A stretch of 64,000 bases of DNA from sequence record PZ386947.1; one strand, given 5' to 3'. The stretch's first letter is position 1. Every line of letters starts with the position of its first letter. This document shows, piece by piece, positions 8,228-40,027 of the stretch. Below the pieces are notes generated by a model. That model did not search any database. It was not told the origin of the DNA and worked only from the letters and a program-made list of their open reading frames with translations. Origin of the DNA: a phage. Made by a program: the position numbers and the translations under genes.

Positions 8228-8255
8228 AAAGTCCTCATGTTATGTCAGTAAGACT

Positions 8256-8285
8256 ACTATAACACAACACGAGGGACTTGTAAAC
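8256..8285 (-). promoter_or_regulatory. early sigma70-type promoter upstream of alc
   Basis: Minus strand GTTTAC (8285-8280), about 18-nt spacer, TATAGT-like -10. Confidence 0.45.
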
Positions 8286-20989: not shown

Positions 20990-20997
20990 TATAAATA
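20990..20997 (+). promoter_or_regulatory. late promoter (TATAAATA) for gene 34
   Basis: Exact TATAAATA 35 nt upstream of gene 34 ATG; GGAG Shine-Dalgarno follows. Confidence 0.6.
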
Positions 20998-21031: not shown

Positions 21032-24000
21032 ATGGCCGAGATTAAAAGAAAGTTCAGAGCAGAAGATGGTCTGGACGCAGGTGGCGATAAAATAATCAAC
21101 GTAGCTTTAGCTGATCGTACCGTAGGAACTGACGGTGTTAACGTTGATTACTTAATTCAAGAAAACACAGTTCAGCAATATGATCCAACTCGTGGATATT
21201 TAAAAGATTTTGTAATCATTTATAATAATCGTTTTTGGGCAGCAACGGATAATATTCCAAAACCTGCTGGAAATTTTAATAGAATTCGTTGGAAAGCATT
21301 ACGTACTGATGCCGTATATACAACCGTATCATCTGGACCATATCAATTAAAATCCGGAGAAGCAATTTCAGTAGATACATCAGTTGGCAATGACATTGAG
21401 TTTACTTTACCACCTTCTCCGCTTGATGGAGAAACCGTAATAATTCAAGATATTGGTGGAAAACCTGGCATAAATCAGGTTAAAATAAATTCTTCAAATC
21501 AGAGTATTGTCAATTTTAGAGGTGAACAGGTACGTTCAGTTTTAATGACTCATCCAAAGTCACAGATGGTATTCATTTTTAATAACCGTTTGTGGCAAAT
21601 GTATATTGCTGATTATAGCAGAGAAGCTGCAATTGTTACTCCATCGACTGCATATCAAGCACAATCTAATGATTTTATCGTACGTAGATTTACTTCTGCC
21701 GCACCGATTAATGTTAAACTTCCAAGATTTGCCAATCATGGAGATATCATTAATTTCGTTGATTTAGATAAATTAAATCCACTTTATCATACAATTGTTA
21801 CGACATATGATGAAACAACGTCAGTGCAAGAAGTTGGAACTCATTCCATTGAAGGCCGTACATCGATTGACGGTTTCTTGATGTTTGATGATAATGAGAA
21901 ATTGTGGAGATTGTTTGACGGGGATAGTAAAGCACGTTTACGCATTATAACGACTAATTCAAACATTCGTCCAAATGAAGAAGTTATGGTATTTGGTGCG
22001 AATAATGGAACAACTCAAACAATTGAGCTTCAGCTTCCGACTGATATTTCTGTTGGTGATACTGTTAAAATTTCCATGAATTACATGAGAAAAGGACAAA
22101 CAGTTAAAATCAAAGCTGCCGGTGAAGATAAAATTGCTTCTTCAGTTCAATTGCTGCAATTCCCAAAACGTTCAGAATATCCGCCTGAAGCTGAATGGGT
22201 AACAGTTCAAGAATTAGTTTTTAATGGTGAAACTAATTATGTACCAGTTTTGCAACTTGCTTATATAGAAGATTCTGATGGAAAATACTGGGTTGTACAG
22301 CAAAACGTTCCAACAGTTGAAAGAGTCGATTCTTTAAATAATTCTACTAGAGCAAGATTAGGCGTAATTGCTTTAGCTACACAAGCTCAAGCAAATGCTG
22401 ATTTAGAAAATTCTCCGCAAAAAGAATTGGCAATTACTCCAGAAACGTTAGCTAATCGTACTGCTACTGAAACTCGCAGAGGTATTGCAAGAATAGCAAC
22501 TACTGCTCAAGTAAATCAGAACACCACATTCTCTTTTGCAGATGACCTTATCATCACTCCTAAAAAGCTGAATGAAAGAACTGCTACAGAAACTCGTAGA
22601 GGTGTCGCTGAAATTGCTACGCAGCAGGAAACTAATACAGGTACTGATGATACTACAATCATCACTCCTAAAAAGCTTCAAGCTCGTCAAGGTTCTGAAT
22701 CATTATCTGGTATTGTAACTTTTGTATCTACCGCAGGAGCTACTCCAGCTTCTAGTCGTGAATTAAATGGTACGAATGTTTATAATAAAAACACTAATAA
22801 TTTAGTTGTTTCACCTAAAGCTTTGGATCAGTATAAAGCTACTCCAACGCAACAAGGCGCAGTAATTTTAGCAGATGAAAGTGAAGTAATTGCTGGACAA
22901 AGCCAAGAAGGATGGGCAAATGCGGTTGTAACGCCAGAAACGTTACATAAAAAGACATCAACTGATGCAAGAATTGGTTTAATTGAAATTGCTACGCAAA
23001 GTGAAGTTAATACAGGAACTGATTATACTCGCGCAGTCACTCCTAAAACTTTAAATGACCGTAAAGCAACTGAAAGTTTAAGTGGTATAGCTGAAATTGC
23101 TACACAGGTTGAATTCGACGCAGGCGTCGACGATACTCGTATCTCTACACCATTAAAAATTAAAACCAGATTTAATAGTACTGATCGTACTTCTGTTGTT
23201 GCTCTATCTGGATTAGTTGAATCAGGAACTCTCTGGGACCATTATACCCTTAATATTCTTGAAGCAAATGAGACACAGCGTGGTACACTTCGTGTAGCTA
23301 CACAAGTTGAAGCTGCTGCAGGAACATTAGATAATGTTTTAATAACTCCTAAAAAGCTTTTAGGTACTAAATCTACTGAAGCACAGGAAGGTGTCATTAA
23401 AGTTGCAACTCAGTCTGAAACTGTGGCTGGAACGTCAGCAAATACTGCTGTATCTCCAAAAAATTTAAAATGGATTGTGCAGAGTGAACCTACTTGGGCA
23501 GCTACTACTGCAATAAGAGGTTTTGTTAAAACTTCATCTGGTTCAATTACATTCGTTGGTAATGATACGGTAGGTTCAACACAGCCATTAGAATCATATG
23601 AGAAAAATGGTTATGCAGTATCACCATATGAATTAAATCGCGTATTAGCAAATTATTTGCCATTAAAAGCAAAAGCTGTAGATAGTAATTTATTAGATGG
23701 TCTAGATTCGCTCCAGTTCATTCGTAGGGACATTGCACAAACAGTTAATGGTTCACTAACCTTAACCCAACAAACGAATCTGAGTGCCCCTCTTGTATCA
23801 TCTAGTACTGCTACATTCGGTGGATCAGTTTCAGCAAATAGTACATTAACTATTTCTAATACTGGAACGGCAACTCGTCTGATTTTTGAGAAAGGACCTC
23901 AAACTGGAACAAACCCAGCTCAAACGATGACAGTCAGAGTGTGGGGAAATCAATTTAGTGGGGAATCAGACACAACACGTTCTACCGTATTTGAAGTTAG

Positions 24001-24901
24001 TGATGAAACGTCTAGTCATTTTTATTCTCAGCGTAATAAAGCTGGAAATATAACATTTAATATCAACGGTACAGTAACACCGATAAATGTTAATGCTTCA
24101 GGAACATTGAATGCAAATGGTGTAGCAACATTTGGTAATTCAGTCACTGCAACTGGTGAAATTATTTCTCGAAGCGCAAATGCTTTCCGTGCTATTAGCG
24201 GAAATTATGGTTTCATTGTTCGCAATGACGGGTCAGTAACGAATTTTATGCTTACTGCATCGGGTGATCAGACTGGCGGATTTAATGGATTGCGTCCTTT
24301 AGCTATTAATAATGCATCTGGCCAAGTAACGATTGGTGAAAGCTTAATCATTGCAAAAGGTGCTACTATAAGTTCGGGTGGTTTGACTGTTAACTCGAGA
24401 ATTCGTTCTCAGGGTACTAAAACCTCTGATTTATATACCCGTGCGCCAACATCTGATACAGTAGGATTCTGGTCAATCGATATTAATGATTCAGCCACTT
24501 ATAACCAGTTTCCGGGTTATTTTAAAATGGTTGAAAAAACTAATGAAGTGACTGGACTTCCATACTTAGAACGTGGTGAAGAAGTTAAATCTCCTGGTAC
24601 ATTGACTCAGTTTGGTAACACACTTGATTCACTTTACCAAGATTGGATTACTTATCCAACGACCCCAGAAGCACGTACCACTCGCTGGACGCGTACATGG
24701 CAGAAAACTAAAAATTCTTGGTCAAGTTTTGTTCAGGTATTTGATGGAGGTAACCCTCCTCAACCTTCGGATATAGGAGCAATCCCATCTGATAATGGAA
24801 TAATAGGTAATCTTACCATTCGTGATTTCTTACGAATTGGTAATGTTCGCATTATTCCTGACCCAGTGAATAAAACTGTTAAATTTGAGTGGATTGAATA
24901 A
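21032..24901 (+). CDS. 34: long tail fiber proximal subunit gp34
   Basis: 1289 aa, identical in length to T4 gp34; N-terminus MAEIKRKFRAEDGLDAGGDKI... Confidence 0.95.
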   Translation: MAEIKRKFRAEDGLDAGGDKIINVALADRTVGTDGVNVDYLIQENTVQQYDPTRGYLKDFVIIYNNRFWAATDNIPKPAGNFNRIRWKALRTDAVYTTVSSGPYQLKSGEAISVDTSVGNDIEFTLPPSPLDGETVIIQDIGGKPGINQVKINSSNQSIVNFRGEQVRSVLMTHPKSQMVFIFNNRLWQMYIADYSREAAIVTPSTAYQAQSNDFIVRRFTSAAPINVKLPRFANHGDIINFVDLDKLNPLYHTIVTTYDETTSVQEVGTHSIEGRTSIDGFLMFDDNEKLWRLFDGDSKARLRIITTNSNIRPNEEVMVFGANNGTTQTIELQLPTDISVGDTVKISMNYMRKGQTVKIKAAGEDKIASSVQLLQFPKRSEYPPEAEWVTVQELVFNGETNYVPVLQLAYIEDSDGKYWVVQQNVPTVERVDSLNNSTRARLGVIALATQAQANADLENSPQKELAITPETLANRTATETRRGIARIATTAQVNQNTTFSFADDLIITPKKLNERTATETRRGVAEIATQQETNTGTDDTTIITPKKLQARQGSESLSGIVTFVSTAGATPASSRELNGTNVYNKNTNNLVVSPKALDQYKATPTQQGAVILADESEVIAGQSQEGWANAVVTPETLHKKTSTDARIGLIEIATQSEVNTGTDYTRAVTPKTLNDRKATESLSGIAEIATQVEFDAGVDDTRISTPLKIKTRFNSTDRTSVVALSGLVESGTLWDHYTLNILEANETQRGTLRVATQVEAAAGTLDNVLITPKKLLGTKSTEAQEGVIKVATQSETVAGTSANTAVSPKNLKWIVQSEPTWAATTAIRGFVKTSSGSITFVGNDTVGSTQPLESYEKNGYAVSPYELNRVLANYLPLKAKAVDSNLLDGLDSLQFIRRDIAQTVNGSLTLTQQTNLSAPLVSSSTATFGGSVSANSTLTISNTGTATRLIFEKGPQTGTNPAQTMTVRVWGNQFSGESDTTRSTVFEVSDETSSHFYSQRNKAGNITFNINGTVTPINVNASGTLNANGVATFGNSVTATGEIISRSANAFRAISGNYGFIVRNDGSVTNFMLTASGDQTGGFNGLRPLAINNASGQVTIGESLIIAKGATISSGGLTVNSRIRSQGTKTSDLYTRAPTSDTVGFWSIDINDSATYNQFPGYFKMVEKTNEVTGLPYLERGEEVKSPGTLTQFGNTLDSLYQDWITYPTTPEARTTRWTRTWQKTKNSWSSFVQVFDGGNPPQPSDIGAIPSDNGIIGNLTIRDFLRIGNVRIIPDPVNKTVKFEWIE
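22430..23475 (+). repeat. internal tandem sequence repeats within gene 34 (fibrous shaft)
   Basis: Repeated ~40-aa units of form (I)TPK(K)L..R.ATE..RG.A.IAT..E.N.GTDD seen at least six times in the translation. Confidence 0.6.
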
Positions 24902-24909
24902 GAGGTATT

Positions 24910-26025
24910 ATGGAAAAATTTATGGCAGAGTTTGGACAAGGATATGTCCAAACGCCATTTTTATCGGAAAGCAATTCAGTAAGATATAAAATAAGCATAG
25001 CGGGTTCTTGCCCGCTTTCTACTGCGGGGCCATATGTTAAATTTCAGGATAATCCCGTTGGAAATCAAACATTTAGTGCAGGTCTTCATTTAAGAGTTTT
25101 TGACCCTTCTACGGGAGCATTAGTTGATAGCAAGTCATATGCTTTTTCTGCTTCAAACAATACAACATCTGCCGCTTTTGTCAGTTTCATGAATTCTTTG
25201 TCAAACAATAGACTTGTTGCTATATTAACTAGCGGAAAGGTTAATTTTCCTCCTGAAGTGGTATCTTGGTTAAGGGGAGCAGGAACTTCAGTTTTTCCAT
25301 CAGATTCAGTATTGTCAAGATTTGACGTATCATATGCTGCTTTTTATACTTCTTCTAAAAGAGCTATTGCATTAGAGCATGTTAAACTAAGTAATAGAAA
25401 AAGCACAGATGATTATCAAACTATTTTAGATGTTGTATTTGATAGTTTAGAAGACGTCGGAGCGACAGGATTTCCAAAAAGAACTTATGAAAGTGTAGAG
25501 CAATTCATGTCAGCAGTTGGTGGAACTAATAACGAAATTGCGCGATTGCCAACTTCAGCTGCTATAAGTAAACTTTCTGACTATAATTTAATTCCTGGTG
25601 ATGTTCTTTATCTTAAAGCACAGTTATATGCTGATGCTGATTTACTTGATCTTGGAACTACAAACATATCCATTCGTTTTTATGATGCATCAAATGGATA
25701 TATTTCCTCGACCCAAGCTGAGTTTACTGGGCAAGCTGGGTCTTGGGAATTAAAAGAAGACTATGTAGTTGTTCCTGAAAATGCAGTAGGATTTACGATA
25801 TATGCACAAAGAACTGCCCAAGCAGGTCAAGGCGGCATGAGAAATTTAAGCTTTTCTGAAGTATCAAGAAATGGCGGAATTTCAAAACCTGCTGAATTTG
25901 GTGTCAATGGTATTCGTGTTAATTATATCGGTGAATCCTCTTTACCTCCAGATATAATGGTACTTCCTACACAGGCATCGTCTAAAACTGGTAAAGTGTT
26001 TGGACAGGAATTTAGAGAAGTTTAA
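24910..26025 (+). CDS. 35: long tail fiber hinge connector gp35
   Basis: 371 aa (T4 gp35 is 372), immediately after gene 34. Confidence 0.85.
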   Translation: MEKFMAEFGQGYVQTPFLSESNSVRYKISIAGSCPLSTAGPYVKFQDNPVGNQTFSAGLHLRVFDPSTGALVDSKSYAFSASNNTTSAAFVSFMNSLSNNRLVAILTSGKVNFPPEVVSWLRGAGTSVFPSDSVLSRFDVSYAAFYTSSKRAIALEHVKLSNRKSTDDYQTILDVVFDSLEDVGATGFPKRTYESVEQFMSAVGGTNNEIARLPTSAAISKLSDYNLIPGDVLYLKAQLYADADLLDLGTTNISIRFYDASNGYISSTQAEFTGQAGSWELKEDYVVVPENAVGFTIYAQRTAQAGQGGMRNLSFSEVSRNGGISKPAEFGVNGIRVNYIGESSLPPDIMVLPTQASSKTGKVFGQEFREV

Positions 26026-26056: not shown

Positions 26057-26064
26057 TATAAATA
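26057..26064 (+). promoter_or_regulatory. late promoter (TATAAATA) for gene 36
   Basis: Exact TATAAATA 24 nt upstream of gene 36 ATG. Confidence 0.55.
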
Positions 26065-26087: not shown

Positions 26088-26738
26088 ATGGCTGATTTAA
26101 AAGTAGGTTCAACTGTGGGTGGATCTGTCATTTGGCATCAAGGAAATTTTCCATTGAATTCAGCCGGTGACGATGTACTCTACAAATCATTTAAAATATA
26201 TTCAGAATATAATAAACCACAGGCAGCTGATAATGATTTCGTTTCTAAATCTACTGGTGGTACTTACACAGGCCCAGTTACTATTAATTATGGTGTAAAT
26301 AGTTATCTTCAATTAAGTAATAATGAAACCCCCATCCGAATTCGTTCTGGTGGCGGCACTGGCAATACTCTTGTAGTTGGTGGCTCTTCTGGCGGTATTA
26401 GTTTTAGACCAGCAGGTAGTGAAATCACTACTGGACAAATTACTATTACGCCAGAAGGTTTGACAACATTTACCAAAGCTGTAAAGGCTCCATCTGTAAC
26501 TGTTACATCTACTCCTTCCGCAGCATCTGATGCTACTCGTAAAGATTATGTTGATGGAGCAATAAATACTGTTACAGCAAATGCAAACTCTAGGGTATTA
26601 CGCTCTGGAGACACTATGACAGGAAATTTAACTGCGCCAAACCTTTTTTCACAGAATCCTGCATCTCAACCTTCACACGTTCCACGATTTGACCAAATCG
26701 TAATTAAGGATTCTGTTCAAGATTTCGGCTATTATTAA
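26088..26738 (+). CDS. 36: long tail fiber distal connector gp36
   Basis: 216 aa, position between 35 and 37. Confidence 0.8.
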
Positions 26739-26746
26739 GAGGACTT

Positions 26747-29692
26747 ATGGCTACTTTAAAACAAATACAATTTAAAAGAAGCAAAACTGCAGGTCAACGT
26801 CCTGCTGCTTCAGTATTAGCCGAAGGTGAATTGGCTATAAACTTAAAAGATAAAACAATTTTCACAAAAGATGACTCAGGTAGTGTTATAGAATTAGGTT
26901 TAAAATATGGAGGAACTATAAATGGGTCTTTAGAGGTTACAGAAAATATAACTGGAACTTTAATTGGAAATTCTAGCACAGCTACTAAATTGCAAACACC
27001 TAGGAAAATTAATGGTATATCTTTTGATGGGTCAAAGGACATTACCTTAACTCCATCTGACATAAATGTCAATAGCACAACATTTATAAAAAATAATGGC
27101 GAATTACCTACTGATGCTAATTTAGATACGTATGGGCCCATTGAAGAATATCTTGGTGTTTGGTCGAAATCTACTTCAACAAATGCGCAACCAGCAAATA
27201 AATTCCCAGAAAAAAATGCCGTAGGTGTACTAGAAGTGTTTGTGGCCGGCCAATTTGCTGGCACTCAGCGTTATACTGTAAGATCTGGTAACGTCTATAC
27301 TCGTTCCTTATCTGCTAAATGGAATGGCGTCGATGGTCCATGGGGTGTGTGGCGTAATGTTCAAGCGTCAACTCGTCCACTTTCACAAACGATTGACCTT
27401 GATAGCTTGGGAGAATTAGAACATTGTGGCTTATGGCGAAACAGTTCAAGCGCAATCGCATCATTTGATCGCCATTATCCAGAAGAAGGATCAGCCGCAC
27501 AAGGATTTTTAGAAATATTTGAAGGTGGTTTATACACGAGAACTCAGCGTTATACTACCCGCATGGGTATGGTTTATACTCGTTGTCTCGCTGCTGCATG
27601 GGATGCTAGTGCACCTAAGTGGGAGGAATGGAAGCAGGTTGGTCATGGCACACCAGCGACTTTCTATGATGGTGACCTTAATGATTTTAAAACTCCTGGG
27701 TTATATAATATTTTAGGCACCGATGCCGTTATTAACTGCCCTACAGGTGAAGGTTTGCCGCCTGTTATTGTTGGTTTGCTGGAAGTTAAACAGCGTGCTT
27801 CTGGTGGTGCTATTTTCCAAAAATTTACTACTGCCGGAACAGGCGCAACTACTCGCGGACGTATTTTTGAGCGTGCATATACTGGTGGTGCGTGGGGTGC
27901 ATGGAACGAAGTATATACATCTTACTCTCTGCCAATTACTTTGGGTATGGGTGGTATTAAAGCTCAATTAGCGGAGTTAGATTGGCAAACCTTTGATTTT
28001 GTTCCTGGTAGTATGTTTAGCGTTCCTTTGAACAAAATAAAGAACATGCCAGCAAATATGGATTGGGGGACGATTGACGGAAACTTGGTTATGTTTTCCG
28101 TTGGTCCTAGCGAACACACTGGCACAGGGCGTACTGTTCAGGTTTGGCGCGGTACTGTATCCCAGACAAACTACCGTTATTTCGTTGTTCGTATCGCTGG
28201 TAATCCAGGAAGTAGGACTAATACTTGTCGCCGTGTTGTTCTTGAAGACGGATCACATACTTGGACTGCTCAACAAAACTTTAGGGGATTGCTGAATATC
28301 ACTGCTGCTGTTAATCTTGGTGCTAATCAGAAAATTTCACTTGCTCCAGGAGCATATATTCAAGCCCCTGCTAGCGGTTCTGGTTCTAATACTTACGCAA
28401 ATCAGAATACTACCATTGCGCCATTATATCAGGCTATTGACAATTCAAATAAAAACCAGTTTGCGCCAATTGTTAAACAGAAAAATACTGTAAGTAATAT
28501 CACCTTTGCCACTGGTATGGCTATAGGTACATCCGAATATAAGATCATTGCTCAGGGTGATTTATCCGCTGATGGAACAGCAGATGGGTTAAAACAGTGG
28601 ACTTTCATGCCGTCAGGTTATTTTAAATCTCCAGGGCGTGTATATGTCGGTGGTGCGTTCCTTAATACAGATGGTAATATTGCCGGTTCAATCTGGAAGA
28701 AATATAACAATGCGACAAATTTAGATGCTGCCTTGAATACTCGCGTAGGTAAAGGCGGTGATACGATGACAGGTCGGTTAACAATCAATACACCTAATGA
28801 TTCTATTGTATTATCAACGACTGCTAGTAATTCTTTGCATATTCGTGGTGACATAGACGGGACTGGTAACTGGTATATTGGTAAGGGTGGTGCTGATAAT
28901 TCGCTAGCATTTTATAGCTATGCTTCTCAGGCGGCAGTACATATCACAAACAATGGTGAGATTGCGTTAAACCCGCAAAATACCACAATGGTTAACGTTA
29001 ACCGTGACCGTGTACACATTAACGGTTCTGGATGGATTGCTAGACAACCGGGTGATTGGGGCAACCAATGGCAAGTAGAAGCTCCATTATTCGTTGATCA
29101 TGGTTATGTTTCACAGGATTGTTATTATCCTATTCTTAAAGCAAGAAGCGTTATAACCAATCAAGGATATAGCACCGCTGTTGACTTTGGTATGCGTCGT
29201 ATTCCATCACAGTGGGGGCAAGCAATCATTCGTGTCGGATCCACGGAGGCTTCTCCTGATGCTGGACACCCACAAGCTGTGTTTGAATTCCATCATGATG
29301 GATTCTTTTATACACCAGGAAATGGTAGCTTTAGCGATGTGTATATTCGTTCTGACTCCCGTCTCAAGATTAATAAAGAAGAATTAGAATATGGAGCGGT
29401 CGAAAAAGTTTGCCGACTGAAAGTTTATATTTACGATAAAGTTAAGTCTATTAAAGACCGTAGTGTTATTAAACGTGAAGTTGGTATTATTGCTCAGGAC
29501 CTTGAAAAGGAATTACCGGAAGCTGTATCTAAAGTTGAAGTTGATGGATCTGATGTTCTGACAATTTCTAACTCTGCTGTGAATGCTCTTTTAATTAAGG
29601 CTATTCAGGAAATGAGTGAAGAAATTAAAGAATTGAAAACGCCTCTCTTTACTAAAATTGCTCGCAAAATTAGTAAATATTTTAAATTCTAA
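26747..29692 (+). CDS. 37: long tail fiber distal subunit gp37
   Basis: 981 aa; N-terminus [22 protein letters not shown] typical of gp37; shorter than T4 gp37, consistent with a T2-type gp37/gp38 arrangement. Confidence 0.9.
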
Positions 29693-29698
29693 CAACAA

Positions 29699-29716
29699 GG
29701 GGGAAATGCCCCCTTT
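29699..29716 (+). promoter_or_regulatory. intergenic hairpin between genes 37 and 38
   Basis: GGGGG-AAATG-CCCCC stem-loop plus TTT, directly upstream of GGAG Shine-Dalgarno of gene 38. Confidence 0.45.
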
Positions 29717-29728
29717 GGAGTATAAATT

Positions 29729-30508
29729 ATGGCAGTAGTTGGAGTTCCTGGCTGGATTGGAAGTTCAGCCGTAAATGAAACGGGTCAGCGCTGGATGAGT
29801 CAAGCAGCTGGTCAATTAAGATTGGGTGTTCCTTGCTGGATGAGTCAATTTGCAGGTCGCTCAAGAGAAATTATTCATACACTTGGAGCAGACCATAACT
29901 TCAATGGTCAATGGTTCCGAGATAGATGTTTTGAGGCAGGTAGTACACCTATAGTGTTTAATATCACTGGAGATTTAGTATCATATTCTAAAGATGTTCC
30001 TTTATTCTTCATGTATGGAGATACACCGAATGAATATGTTCAGTTGAATATACACGGCGTAGCGATGTATGGCCGTGGCGGTAATGGCGGTAGCAATAGT
30101 CCTGGTTCAGCTGGCGGTCATTGTATTCAAAACGATATTGGTGGGAGACTAAGAATTAATAATGGCGGAGCTATTGCTGGAGGTGGCGGCGGCGGAGGCG
30201 GCGGCAACAGGGGTAGACTATCCTTTGGCGGCGGAGGCGGTCGTCCATTTGGCGCTGGTGGGTCTTCCTCTCATATGAGTGCTGGTGCAACCTCCGGCAC
30301 TATTTACGCTCCGGGTGCAGGATCTGTCGGTGAGGGGTCTCTTAGTGCATATACAGGCGGGAATGGCGGTGAAGTTGGCTCCGCAGGAGGTAGATGTAAT
30401 ACTCACGGTACCGGTACAGAATATGACGGCGGTGCTGCTGGTTATGCCGTCATAGGGTCTACGCCGACATGGCAAAACGTTGGAGCAATATATGGTCCAA
30501 GAGTATAA
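29729..30508 (+). CDS. 38: gp38 receptor-binding adhesin (T2-type, glycine-rich)
   Basis: 259 aa with multiple poly-Gly stretches ([24 protein letters not shown]) separating short variable segments; follows gene 37. Confidence 0.8.
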
Positions 30509-30538
30509 TGTGAATAAATACCCTTAAAAGGAGGGTCT

Positions 30539-31195
30539 ATGGCAGCACCTAGAATATCATTTTCGCCCTCTGATATTCTATTTGGTGTTCTAGATCGCTT
30601 GTTCAAAGATAATGCTACCGGGAAAGTTCTTGCTTCCCGGGTAGCTGTCGTAATTCTTTTGTTTATAATGGCGATTGTTTGGTATAGGGGAGATAGTTTC
30701 TTTGAGTACTATAAGCAATCAAAGTATGAAACATACAGCGAAATTATTGAAAAGGAAAGAAATGCACGCTTTGAATCTGTCGCCCTGGAACAACTCCAGA
30801 TAGTTCATATATCATCTGAGGCAGACTTTAGTGCGGTATATTCTTTCCGCCCTAAAAACTTAAACTATTTTGTTGATATTATAGCATACGAAGGAAAATT
30901 ACCTTCAACAATAAGCGAAAAATCACTTGGAGGATATCCTGTTGATAAAACTATGGATGAATATGCAGTTCATTTAAATGGACGTCATTATTATTCCGAC
31001 TCAAAATTTGCTTTTTTACCAACTAAAAAGCCTACTCCCGAAATAAATTACATGTACAGTTGTCCATATTTCAATTTGGATAATATCTATGCTGGAACAA
31101 TAACCATGTACTGGTATAGAAATGATCATATAAGTAATGACCGCCTTGAATCAATATGTTCTCAGGCGGCCAGAATATTAGGAAGGGCTAAATAA
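30539..31195 (+). CDS. t: holin
   Basis: 218 aa; MAAPRISFSPSDILFGVLDRLFKDNATGKVLASRVAVVILLFIMAIVW recognised as T4 holin T, one TM helix plus large periplasmic domain. Confidence 0.9.
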   Translation: MAAPRISFSPSDILFGVLDRLFKDNATGKVLASRVAVVILLFIMAIVWYRGDSFFEYYKQSKYETYSEIIEKERNARFESVALEQLQIVHISSEADFSAVYSFRPKNLNYFVDIIAYEGKLPSTISEKSLGGYPVDKTMDEYAVHLNGRHYYSDSKFAFLPTKKPTPEINYMYSCPYFNLDNIYAGTITMYWYRNDHISNDRLESICSQAARILGRAK

Positions 31196-40016: not shown

Positions 40017-40027
40017 AATTTTCCTTA

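Follow-up and report, generated by a model that had tools for sequence, protein, structure and literature searches.

The window analysed here, the complete 64,000-nucleotide stretch of phage DNA from sequence record PZ386947.1, displays the gene order g36-g37-g38-t, the canonical long-tail-fibre arrangement of the T-even phages. Within this block, gene 38 (29729-30508 including the stop codon, + strand) starts with ATG and comprises 780 nucleotides (nt) encoding a protein of 259 amino acids (aa), exactly the open reading frame (ORF) given in a preliminary description of the sequence. The gene is assigned to the adhesin-type gp38, a receptor-recognising protein. Taken as a whole, the locus very probably comprises the gp38 adhesin allele of Escherichia phage T4_ev240 (EV240, LR597657), with OmpA as its predicted receptor, placed as a precise cassette in the genome of Shigella phage CM8 (MK962750), most likely by engineering.

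The gp38 polypeptide comprises three successive regions, all encoded on the + strand: (i) an N-terminal gp37-attachment domain (aa 1-47; 29729-29869), containing Trp9, Trp22, and Trp37 and placed by the Gp38_N match at aa 1-42 and the alignment with gp38 of phage S16; (ii) a conserved β-helix core (aa 48-114; 29870-30070), with a mean column entropy of 0.76 bits and β-strands modelled at a predicted local distance difference test (pLDDT) score >90; and (iii) a polyglycine II (PGII) sandwich region (aa 115-238; 30071-30442), in which 48 of the 124 residues are glycine and glycine motifs alternate with variable segments. Glycine accounts for 38.7% of residues 115-238 versus 11.4% of residues 1-114, the runs including one of nine residues (G9, aa 151-159), one of five (G5, aa 167-171), and ten GG pairs. 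The nine-glycine run (30179-30205, + strand) corresponds to the central PGII helix motif, the counterpart of helix 3 of S16 gp38 (151-GGGGGGGG-158). Four hypervariable segments (HVS) are interspersed on the same strand, including (i) HVS1 (aa 122-128, SNSPGSA; 30092-30112; family entropy 1.79 bits), (ii) HVS2 (aa 160-166, NRGRLSF; 30206-30226; 2.10 bits), an indel hotspot, (iii) HVS3 (aa 179-210; 30263-30358), delimited on the entropy profile, and (iv) HVS4 (aa 222-233; 30392-30427; 1.93 bits).

The conservation profile is based on a gp38 homologue search that returned 194 clusters, with 101 full-length representatives aligned together with the window protein (102 sequences). Across residues 115-238, glycine positions display a mean column entropy of 0.44 bits versus 1.42 bits for non-glycine positions (Mann-Whitney p=3e-9), which bears out the earlier account of glycine stretches separating variable segments. 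The glycine motifs have a mean of 0.51 bits and the four inter-glycine segments one of 1.64 bits (p=1.5e-13), the limits of HVS1-4 having been set after the entropy profile was seen, so that the comparison of glycine with non-glycine positions represents the independent test. All common indels within the glycine-rich region fall inside HVS segments, after aa 123, 162, and 225, and a further common indel, of a single residue, is located in the β-helix upstream of this region, after aa 109. Each of the three tryptophans of the attachment domain has its counterpart in the S16 alignment; across the 102 sequences W9 never varies, W22 is conserved in at least 90%, and W37 is the majority residue. 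Two database entries of the family deserve separate mention: one protein of 303 aa, assigned to E. coli, combines Peptidase_S74 and GP38 domains, apparently a fusion of a gp37 C-terminus with gp38 or a mis-called ORF, and a gp38 cluster of 155 members is labelled 'Bacillus cereus', most likely reflecting phage contamination in an assembly.

Both Pfam models of the adhesin family match the protein, GP38 (PF05268) at aa 47-259 over the full model (235 bits, cut-off 25; E 9e-70) and Gp38_N (PF21721) at aa 1-42 (74 bits, cut-off 25; E 9e-21), and among the phage orthologous groups it matches PHROG 2056 (E 2e-108), annotated 'tail fiber protein; host specificity'. Sequence matches in the PDB comprise (i) the receptor-binding domain of PP01 gp38 (PDB code 9V85; E 1e-77) and (ii) the S16 gp37-gp38 tip (6F45_D; E 2e-53). 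An AlphaFold2 model computed from the 102-sequence alignment displays a mean pLDDT of 86.9, with aa 115-238 mostly >90 and low values in the attachment domain, as expected for a monomer modelled without gp37. The only significant Foldseek matches of this model in the PDB are the same two structures, 9V85 (template modelling (TM) score 0.87, root mean square deviation 2.1 Å) and 6F45_D (TM 0.79), the next match having E=1.9. As modelled, gp38 adopts a three-domain fold with a PGII sandwich of glycine-rich motifs.

This fold is well described in the homologues. In S16 gp38, the three conserved N-terminal tryptophans of a helical bundle enter the three equivalent pockets that trimeric gp37 offers (PMC6851490, CASP13); beyond the bundle follow a central β-helix and ten glycine-rich motifs that form a three-layer PGII sandwich, with the hypervariable segments as its distal connecting loops, where the receptor is proposed to bind (PMC6851490). 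In PP01 gp38, loops D and E contact extracellular loops 5 and 7 of OmpC, according to cross-linking and mutagenesis (PMC12892980). Structural alignment of the window protein gives 64% identity with PP01 gp38 and 45% with S16 gp38; both have the same three-domain architecture and PGII sandwich, and both are OmpC binders with other variable loops. The preliminary description took the segments between the glycine runs as receptor-contact loops, which is the established view because of the S16 and PP01 results; one qualification is that HVS1 does not discriminate between the Tsx-type and OmpA-type proteins compared. The two Pfam models, the predicted fold, the alternation of glycine motifs and HVS, the three tryptophans, and a gp37 ending in an S74 domain immediately upstream are all present, and together they support the assignment of gene 38 as an adhesin-type gp38 for which location at the virion fibre tip and receptor binding are predicted from the homologues and from the EV240 allele. 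The distinction that the preliminary description drew from the chaperone-type gp38 of T4 is upheld by the Pfam, PHROG, and PDB matches.

Outside the adhesin gene, the window is CM8. A base-level comparison gave 100.000% identity over 1-29742 and 30479-64000, window 1-40027 corresponding to CM8 127218-167247 and 40028-64000 to CM8 1-23973, with the junction at 40027/40028 running across the ends of the record. Departures from CM8 are confined to the swapped cassette at 29743-30478 (+ strand), which is 100% identical to EV240. The identity to EV240 extends over 29588-30509 and is bounded by mismatches at 29587 and at 30510, the latter 2 nt past the stop codon; elsewhere the identity between the window and the EV240 backbone is only 92-97%. 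Since CM8 differs over 29743-30478 and EV240 differs at 29587 and 30510, the crossovers lie (i) on the left, within 29588-29742 (+ strand), an interval shared by the window, CM8, and EV240 that covers the 3' end of gene 37, the intergenic region, and the first 14 nt of gene 38, and (ii) on the right, within 30479-30509 (+ strand), comprising the 30 terminal nt of gene 38 and one further nt, the last CM8 difference being at 30478. The window is not EV240 itself, a candidate excluded by the lengths of EV240 gp36 (229 aa; 216 aa in the window) and gp37 (1027 aa; 981 aa in the window). At the protein level the swap changes 35 aa relative to CM8, of which 30 lie in the interval aa 159-230 (HVS2-HVS4), and the N-terminal 114 residues of CM8 gp38 differ from the window at four positions. 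The variable segments of the native CM8 gp38 are T6-like, with 50 of 54 positions identical to T6.

The gp38 DNA is 100% identical to that of EV240 over the whole 780-nt gene. A tblastn ranking of the receptor-binding part places EV240 and NBG2 first (100%), followed by FL12 (96%), FL20 (88%), Ac3 (88%), and FL18 (84%), below which identity drops to a large 75% group including RB3, RB5, and RB27. Across HVS1-4, identity to the window protein is 95% for Ac3, 93% for FL12, 84% for FL18, 83% for FL20, 59% for CM8, 57% for T6, and 17% for T2. On these comparisons the window gp38 belongs with the EV240/FL12/Ac3-like variants, built on a T6-like scaffold. Lutz et al. (2025, PMC12032242) established OmpA dependence by experiment for FL12, FL20, and FL18, whose gp38 proteins belong to the narrow-host-range 'type 2' adhesins; the variable segments of the window protein lie near these OmpA-dependent members and apart from the Tsx, OmpF, and OmpC sets. 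Random barcode transposon sequencing (RB-TnSeq) assigned the receptors OmpA/HepI to EV240, Tsx/HepI to CM8, and OmpA/HepI to CM8m1, a CM8 derivative (bioRxiv 10.64898/2026.04.02.716166, Table S1). Because the allele is identical to that of EV240 and its variable segments group with FL12, FL20, and FL18, the primary receptor is predicted to be E. coli OmpA. The statement that gp38 defines host range, made before any of these comparisons, finds direct support in published work in which CM8 used OmpA in place of Tsx once it had received EV240 gp38 (bioRxiv 10.64898/2026.04.02.716166).

The label 'T2-type' used in the preliminary description holds at the level of the family and fails in detail. 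T2 gp38 (262 aa; FadL/OmpF) shares the Pfam family and the gene position with the window protein, with 52% identity overall and only 17% in the variable segments.

The partner of the adhesin is encoded by gene 37 (26747-29692, + strand; 981 aa), the distal long-tail-fibre subunit, which is 100% CM8-type and T6-like in its distal part, aa 676-981 being 89% identical to T6 gp37. It ends in a Peptidase_S74 intramolecular chaperone domain (aa 869-981; 29351-29689, + strand; PF13884 at aa 869-927), opened at S869 by an SDSRLK motif (SD.R.K) that marks the presumed self-cleavage site and a tail of 113 aa, and this C-terminal domain aligns to S16 gp37 in 6F45_A. The SD.R.K motif is present in the gp37 proteins of EV240, T2, and T6 and absent from that of T4, which carries Collar and fibre-repeat domains in place of the S74 domain. 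The gp37 length of 981 aa stated in the preliminary description is correct, but not its reading as 'correspondingly shorter': gp37 comprises 1026 aa in T4, beside a chaperone gp38, and 1341 aa in T2, 994 aa in T6, 1027 aa in EV240, and 981 aa in the window, all four beside an adhesin. The proposal that an adhesin gp38 goes with a shorter gp37 was therefore rejected, both on the T2 length and on EV240, which pairs an identical gp38 with a longer gp37. The real gp37 correlate of an adhesin gp38 is the C-terminal S74 chaperone domain replacing the collar and needle tip of T4. By analogy with S74 domains at large, cleavage presumably removes this tail and uncovers the tip for gp38 docking.

The gp37 tip of the window (aa 676-868; 28772-29350) and the distal half of EV240 gp37 display only ~41% identity in a gappy alignment, and the genomic background of the two phages also differs, whereas their gp38 genes are identical in DNA. 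Within the attachment domain (aa 1-47), CM8 and EV240 gp38 differ at two positions. Given ~41% identity at the gp37 tip and yet near-identical gp38 attachment domains, one adhesin N-terminal domain serves dissimilar fibre tips, and divergent gp37 partners are evidently no obstacle to the attachment module, which fits the conserved tryptophan-pocket docking of S16; the reported viability of the chimera of CM8 with EV240 gp38 (CM8 x EV240Gp38) backs docking across divergent tips (bioRxiv 10.64898/2026.04.02.716166). Two observations touch on this module. Codon 37 of the native CM8 gp38 is TTG (Leu), and the window displays TGG at 29837-29839, encoding W37, the third anchoring tryptophan, which also occurs in the T2, T6, FL12, FL20, FL18, Ac3, and S16 proteins; the EV240 swap restores the tryptophan. 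FL12 gp38 is a mosaic, its first ~47 residues forming a T2-like attachment domain (15 of 47 residues unlike the window) and the remainder being nearly identical to the window protein, which suggests separate exchange of the attachment module, to fit the gp37 partner.

In the mechanism proposed, the gene 38 product would sit as a monomeric adhesin on the tip of the gp37 trimer, as its cap, and choose the outer-membrane protein bound first. The S74 chaperone domain at the C-terminus of gp37 would assist folding of gp37 itself and then be cleaved off at ~Ser869, as the domain and the motif indicate. The N-terminal helical domain of gp38 would dock on the exposed gp37 base via W9, W22, and W37, by homology with the S16 crystal structure. 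The glycine-rich motifs would build a rigid lattice of PGII helices, as in the model superposing on PP01 and S16 gp38, and the variable segments between them would form distal loops touching the extracellular loops of the receptor.

Recognition may reach beyond OmpA, with a second outer-membrane protein or lipopolysaccharide (LPS) contributing to long-tail-fibre binding and OmpA being insufficient to account for the host range. Several gp38 phages need at least two receptors, PST, RB32, and Ox2 being cases in point (Trojet 2011), type 2 OmpA adhesins infect only strains with certain OmpA loop variants (PMC12032242), and EV240 depends on LPS heptose (HepI) as well. The HepI requirement nevertheless follows gp12, the short tail fibre, a swap of which changed HepI to Kdo independently of gp38, and the EV240 RB-TnSeq list comprises ompA and LPS-core genes and no second porin, which makes an additional receptor of the adhesin unlikely.

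As regards provenance, the construction of a phage of this design has been published. In a 2026 preprint, plasmid pLM1, carrying the complete EV240 gp38 between 250-bp CM8 flanks, was recombined into CM8 (bioRxiv 10.64898/2026.04.02.716166), with a tsx-deletion host serving to select the recombinants; the outcome was CM8 x EV240Gp38 (CM8m1), in which the receptor had switched from Tsx to OmpA (bioRxiv 10.64898/2026.04.02.716166); CM8m4 is a double mutant that also carries the gp12 of JK38 and displays OmpA/Kdo specificity (bioRxiv 10.64898/2026.04.02.716166). CM8m1 and CM8m4 share with the window the same design, a CM8 genome with EV240 gp38, a correspondence established from the published description of the design and not from a deposited sequence; gp12, which separates the two, lies outside the window. 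The recombinant genomes have the status 'submitted', which would account for the lack of a record matching the window in the phage collection (August 2025 release). With high probability, the window comes from, or reproduces, the engineered CM8 x EV240Gp38, either CM8m1 or the double mutant CM8m4.

A natural and very recent recombination between a CM8-like and an EV240-like phage would leave a comparable pattern, the whole gp38 cassette having moved by homologous recombination in conserved flanks. Both crossover intervals (29588-29742 and 30479-30509) indeed lack any difference between the parents, as homologous recombination would give, and exchanges in gp38 crosses favour the conserved sequences flanking the specificity region (Trojet 2011). 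Natural transfer of such cassettes does happen, because near-identical OmpA-type gp38 alleles span three genera, Tequatrovirus (FL12), Krischvirus (FL20), and Mosigvirus (FL18). Against a natural event in the present case stand (i) the complete lack of differences from the CM8 GenBank record across the remaining 63.2 kb, (ii) a donor stretch 100% identical to EV240, (iii) the end of the EV240-type sequence at most 2 nt from the stop codon, like the pLM1 design, (iv) the use of CM8 and EV240 as parents in a published engineering experiment, and (v) the failure to find the left junction or the gp37/gp38 pairing in any public contig scanned. All six public contigs encoding the identical gp38 carry the EV240-type gp36 (229 aa) and gp37 (1027 aa) and none the CM8-type, and exact-match scans with a 198-nt left-junction pattern, which are weak negatives, gave no match in IMG/VR and JGI metagenome contigs. 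A natural origin is on balance quite unlikely, and the specific case of an independent natural recombinant that placed the whole gp38 cassette on a heterologous gp37 tip (~41% identity) is less likely still; if true, the window would capture a one-step switch from Tsx to OmpA in nature, with 63 kb otherwise unchanged.

Engineering of CM8 with the EV240 adhesin remains the preferred origin, and several points weigh against this reading or the functional claims joined to it. The preprint mentions, in wording that does not single out one mutant, a recombinant exchanged only distally, from HVS2, and the EV240-specific bases of the window begin at nt 15 of the gene 38 ORF, the whole ORF having been exchanged; the window could therefore be the other mutant, the in-silico design, or an independent recombinant. 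The match to CM8m1 or CM8m4 is, moreover, one of design, and the OmpA call rests on identity to EV240, characterised in a preprint, and on likeness to OmpA-dependent phages. Docking of EV240 gp38 on a heterologous tip would follow from the reported viability of the chimera, and cleavage at Ser869 and docking in tryptophan pockets are homology-based and putative.

Retention of the Tsx specificity of the CM8 backbone and of T6 has to be considered, as T6-like gp38 adhesins use Tsx (Trojet 2011). The native CM8 gp38 (260 aa) and T6 gp38 (265 aa), both Tsx binders, share the family, the scaffold, and HVS1 with the window protein, the N-terminal domain is also nearly identical, and type 2 OmpA adhesins are phylogenetically near the Tsx binders (Lutz 2025, PMC12032242). 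The T6-like Tsx adhesins are, however, characterised by four T6-type segments (Trojet 2011), of which the window has only HVS1 in common; across HVS2-4, 24 of 51 aligned positions differ from the T6 type, and the divergence further includes 5 aa inserted just before HVS2 and 4 aa deleted within HVS3. HVS1 is identical in the window, CM8, T6, and FL12, that is, across the Tsx-type and OmpA-type proteins compared. Relative to the window, HVS2 of CM8 and T6 displays the 5-aa insertion and four substitutions; HVS3 is unlike CM8 at 16 of 32 positions and unlike FL12 at one of 32; and HVS4 is unlike CM8 and T6 at four of 12 positions and unlike Ac3 at none. The overall HVS identity of 57-59% to CM8 and T6, set against 93% to the OmpA phage FL12, together with the RB-TnSeq result for the identical EV240 protein, which yields ompA and not tsx (bioRxiv 10.64898/2026.04.02.716166), and the selection of the chimera on a tsx-deletion host (bioRxiv 10.64898/2026.04.02.716166), renders a Tsx-targeting adhesin highly improbable.

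That gene 38 encodes a T4-type assembly chaperone absent from the virion, with receptor binding residing in gp37, was rejected, since only the gene name and the position between gene 37 and t are common to T4, whereas a direct BLASTP comparison with the 183-aa T4 assembly chaperone gave E=1.8 and no similarity, the Pfam and PHROG families are disjoint (T4 gp38 belonging to PHROG 105, 'tail fiber assembly'), the window gp37 displays the S74 chaperone domain instead of the T4 Collar and needle-tip domains, and exchange of gp38 by itself alters the receptor (bioRxiv 10.64898/2026.04.02.716166). Accordingly, neither of the two outcomes that the preliminary description had named as contrary to its own reading, alignment with a T4-type gp38 or lack of a glycine-rich scaffold, was found when both were checked.

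The gp38 adhesins are the main host-range determinant in most T-even phages and a preferred handle for retargeting therapeutic phages. Published work already covers the family and its structure, what the variable loops do, and the exact gene swap, and the locus reveals no new biology in this respect. In practical terms, the gene is best labelled an OmpA-type gp38 adhesin (EV240 allele), and the Tsx receptor of CM8 is not to be assumed despite a backbone that is 100% identical; a perfect backbone and a cassette bounded by one ORF mark the sequence as probably engineered.

The rest of the T-even long-tail-fibre block comprises gp34 (21032-24901; 1289 aa), gp35 (24910-26025; 371 aa), and gene 36 (26088-26738, + strand; 216 aa), and directly 3' of gene 38 lies the holin gene t (30539-31195, + strand; 218 aa; Pfam Phage_holin_T, E 2e-117). 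Genes 37 and 38 are separated by a gap of 36 nt containing a GC-rich stem-loop, GGGGAAATGCCCCC (29700-29713), just 5' of a GGAG ribosome-binding site. The hairpin is identical in the window, CM8, and EV240; on the + strand it has no T run behind it, and it scored only as a minus-strand terminator-like match. A sigma-70 promoter and terminator scan gave nothing meaningful on the + strand, and the exact T4 late-promoter consensus TATAAATA does not occur directly upstream of the gene, where only TATAAATT is found at 29721-29728. The nearest + strand copies of TATAAATA are at 20990-20997 (35 nt ahead of the start codon of gene 34) and 26057-26064 (24 nt ahead of that of gene 36), in a 64-kb window containing seven copies versus 9.3 expected, i.e. 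not above chance. Because TATAAATA precedes gene 36 and none lies directly before gene 38, the positions of the motif suggest that genes 36, 37, and 38 are co-transcribed.

Two minor observations concern the genomes compared. In the record of Krischvirus FL20, which starts a few hundred bases upstream of gp38, the features listed beside the gene include neither gp37 nor a holin, consistent with the reported distance of ~55 kb between gp38 and gp37 in Krischvirus (bioRxiv 10.64898/2026.04.02.716166). An apparent 7-kb indel of the window relative to CM8 was rejected as an artefact of a joined repeat, the true alignment being colinear; the repeat, 54 bp long and exact, occurs in the CM8 genome as copies ~15 kb apart, corresponding to window 8232-8285 and CM8 120272-120325.

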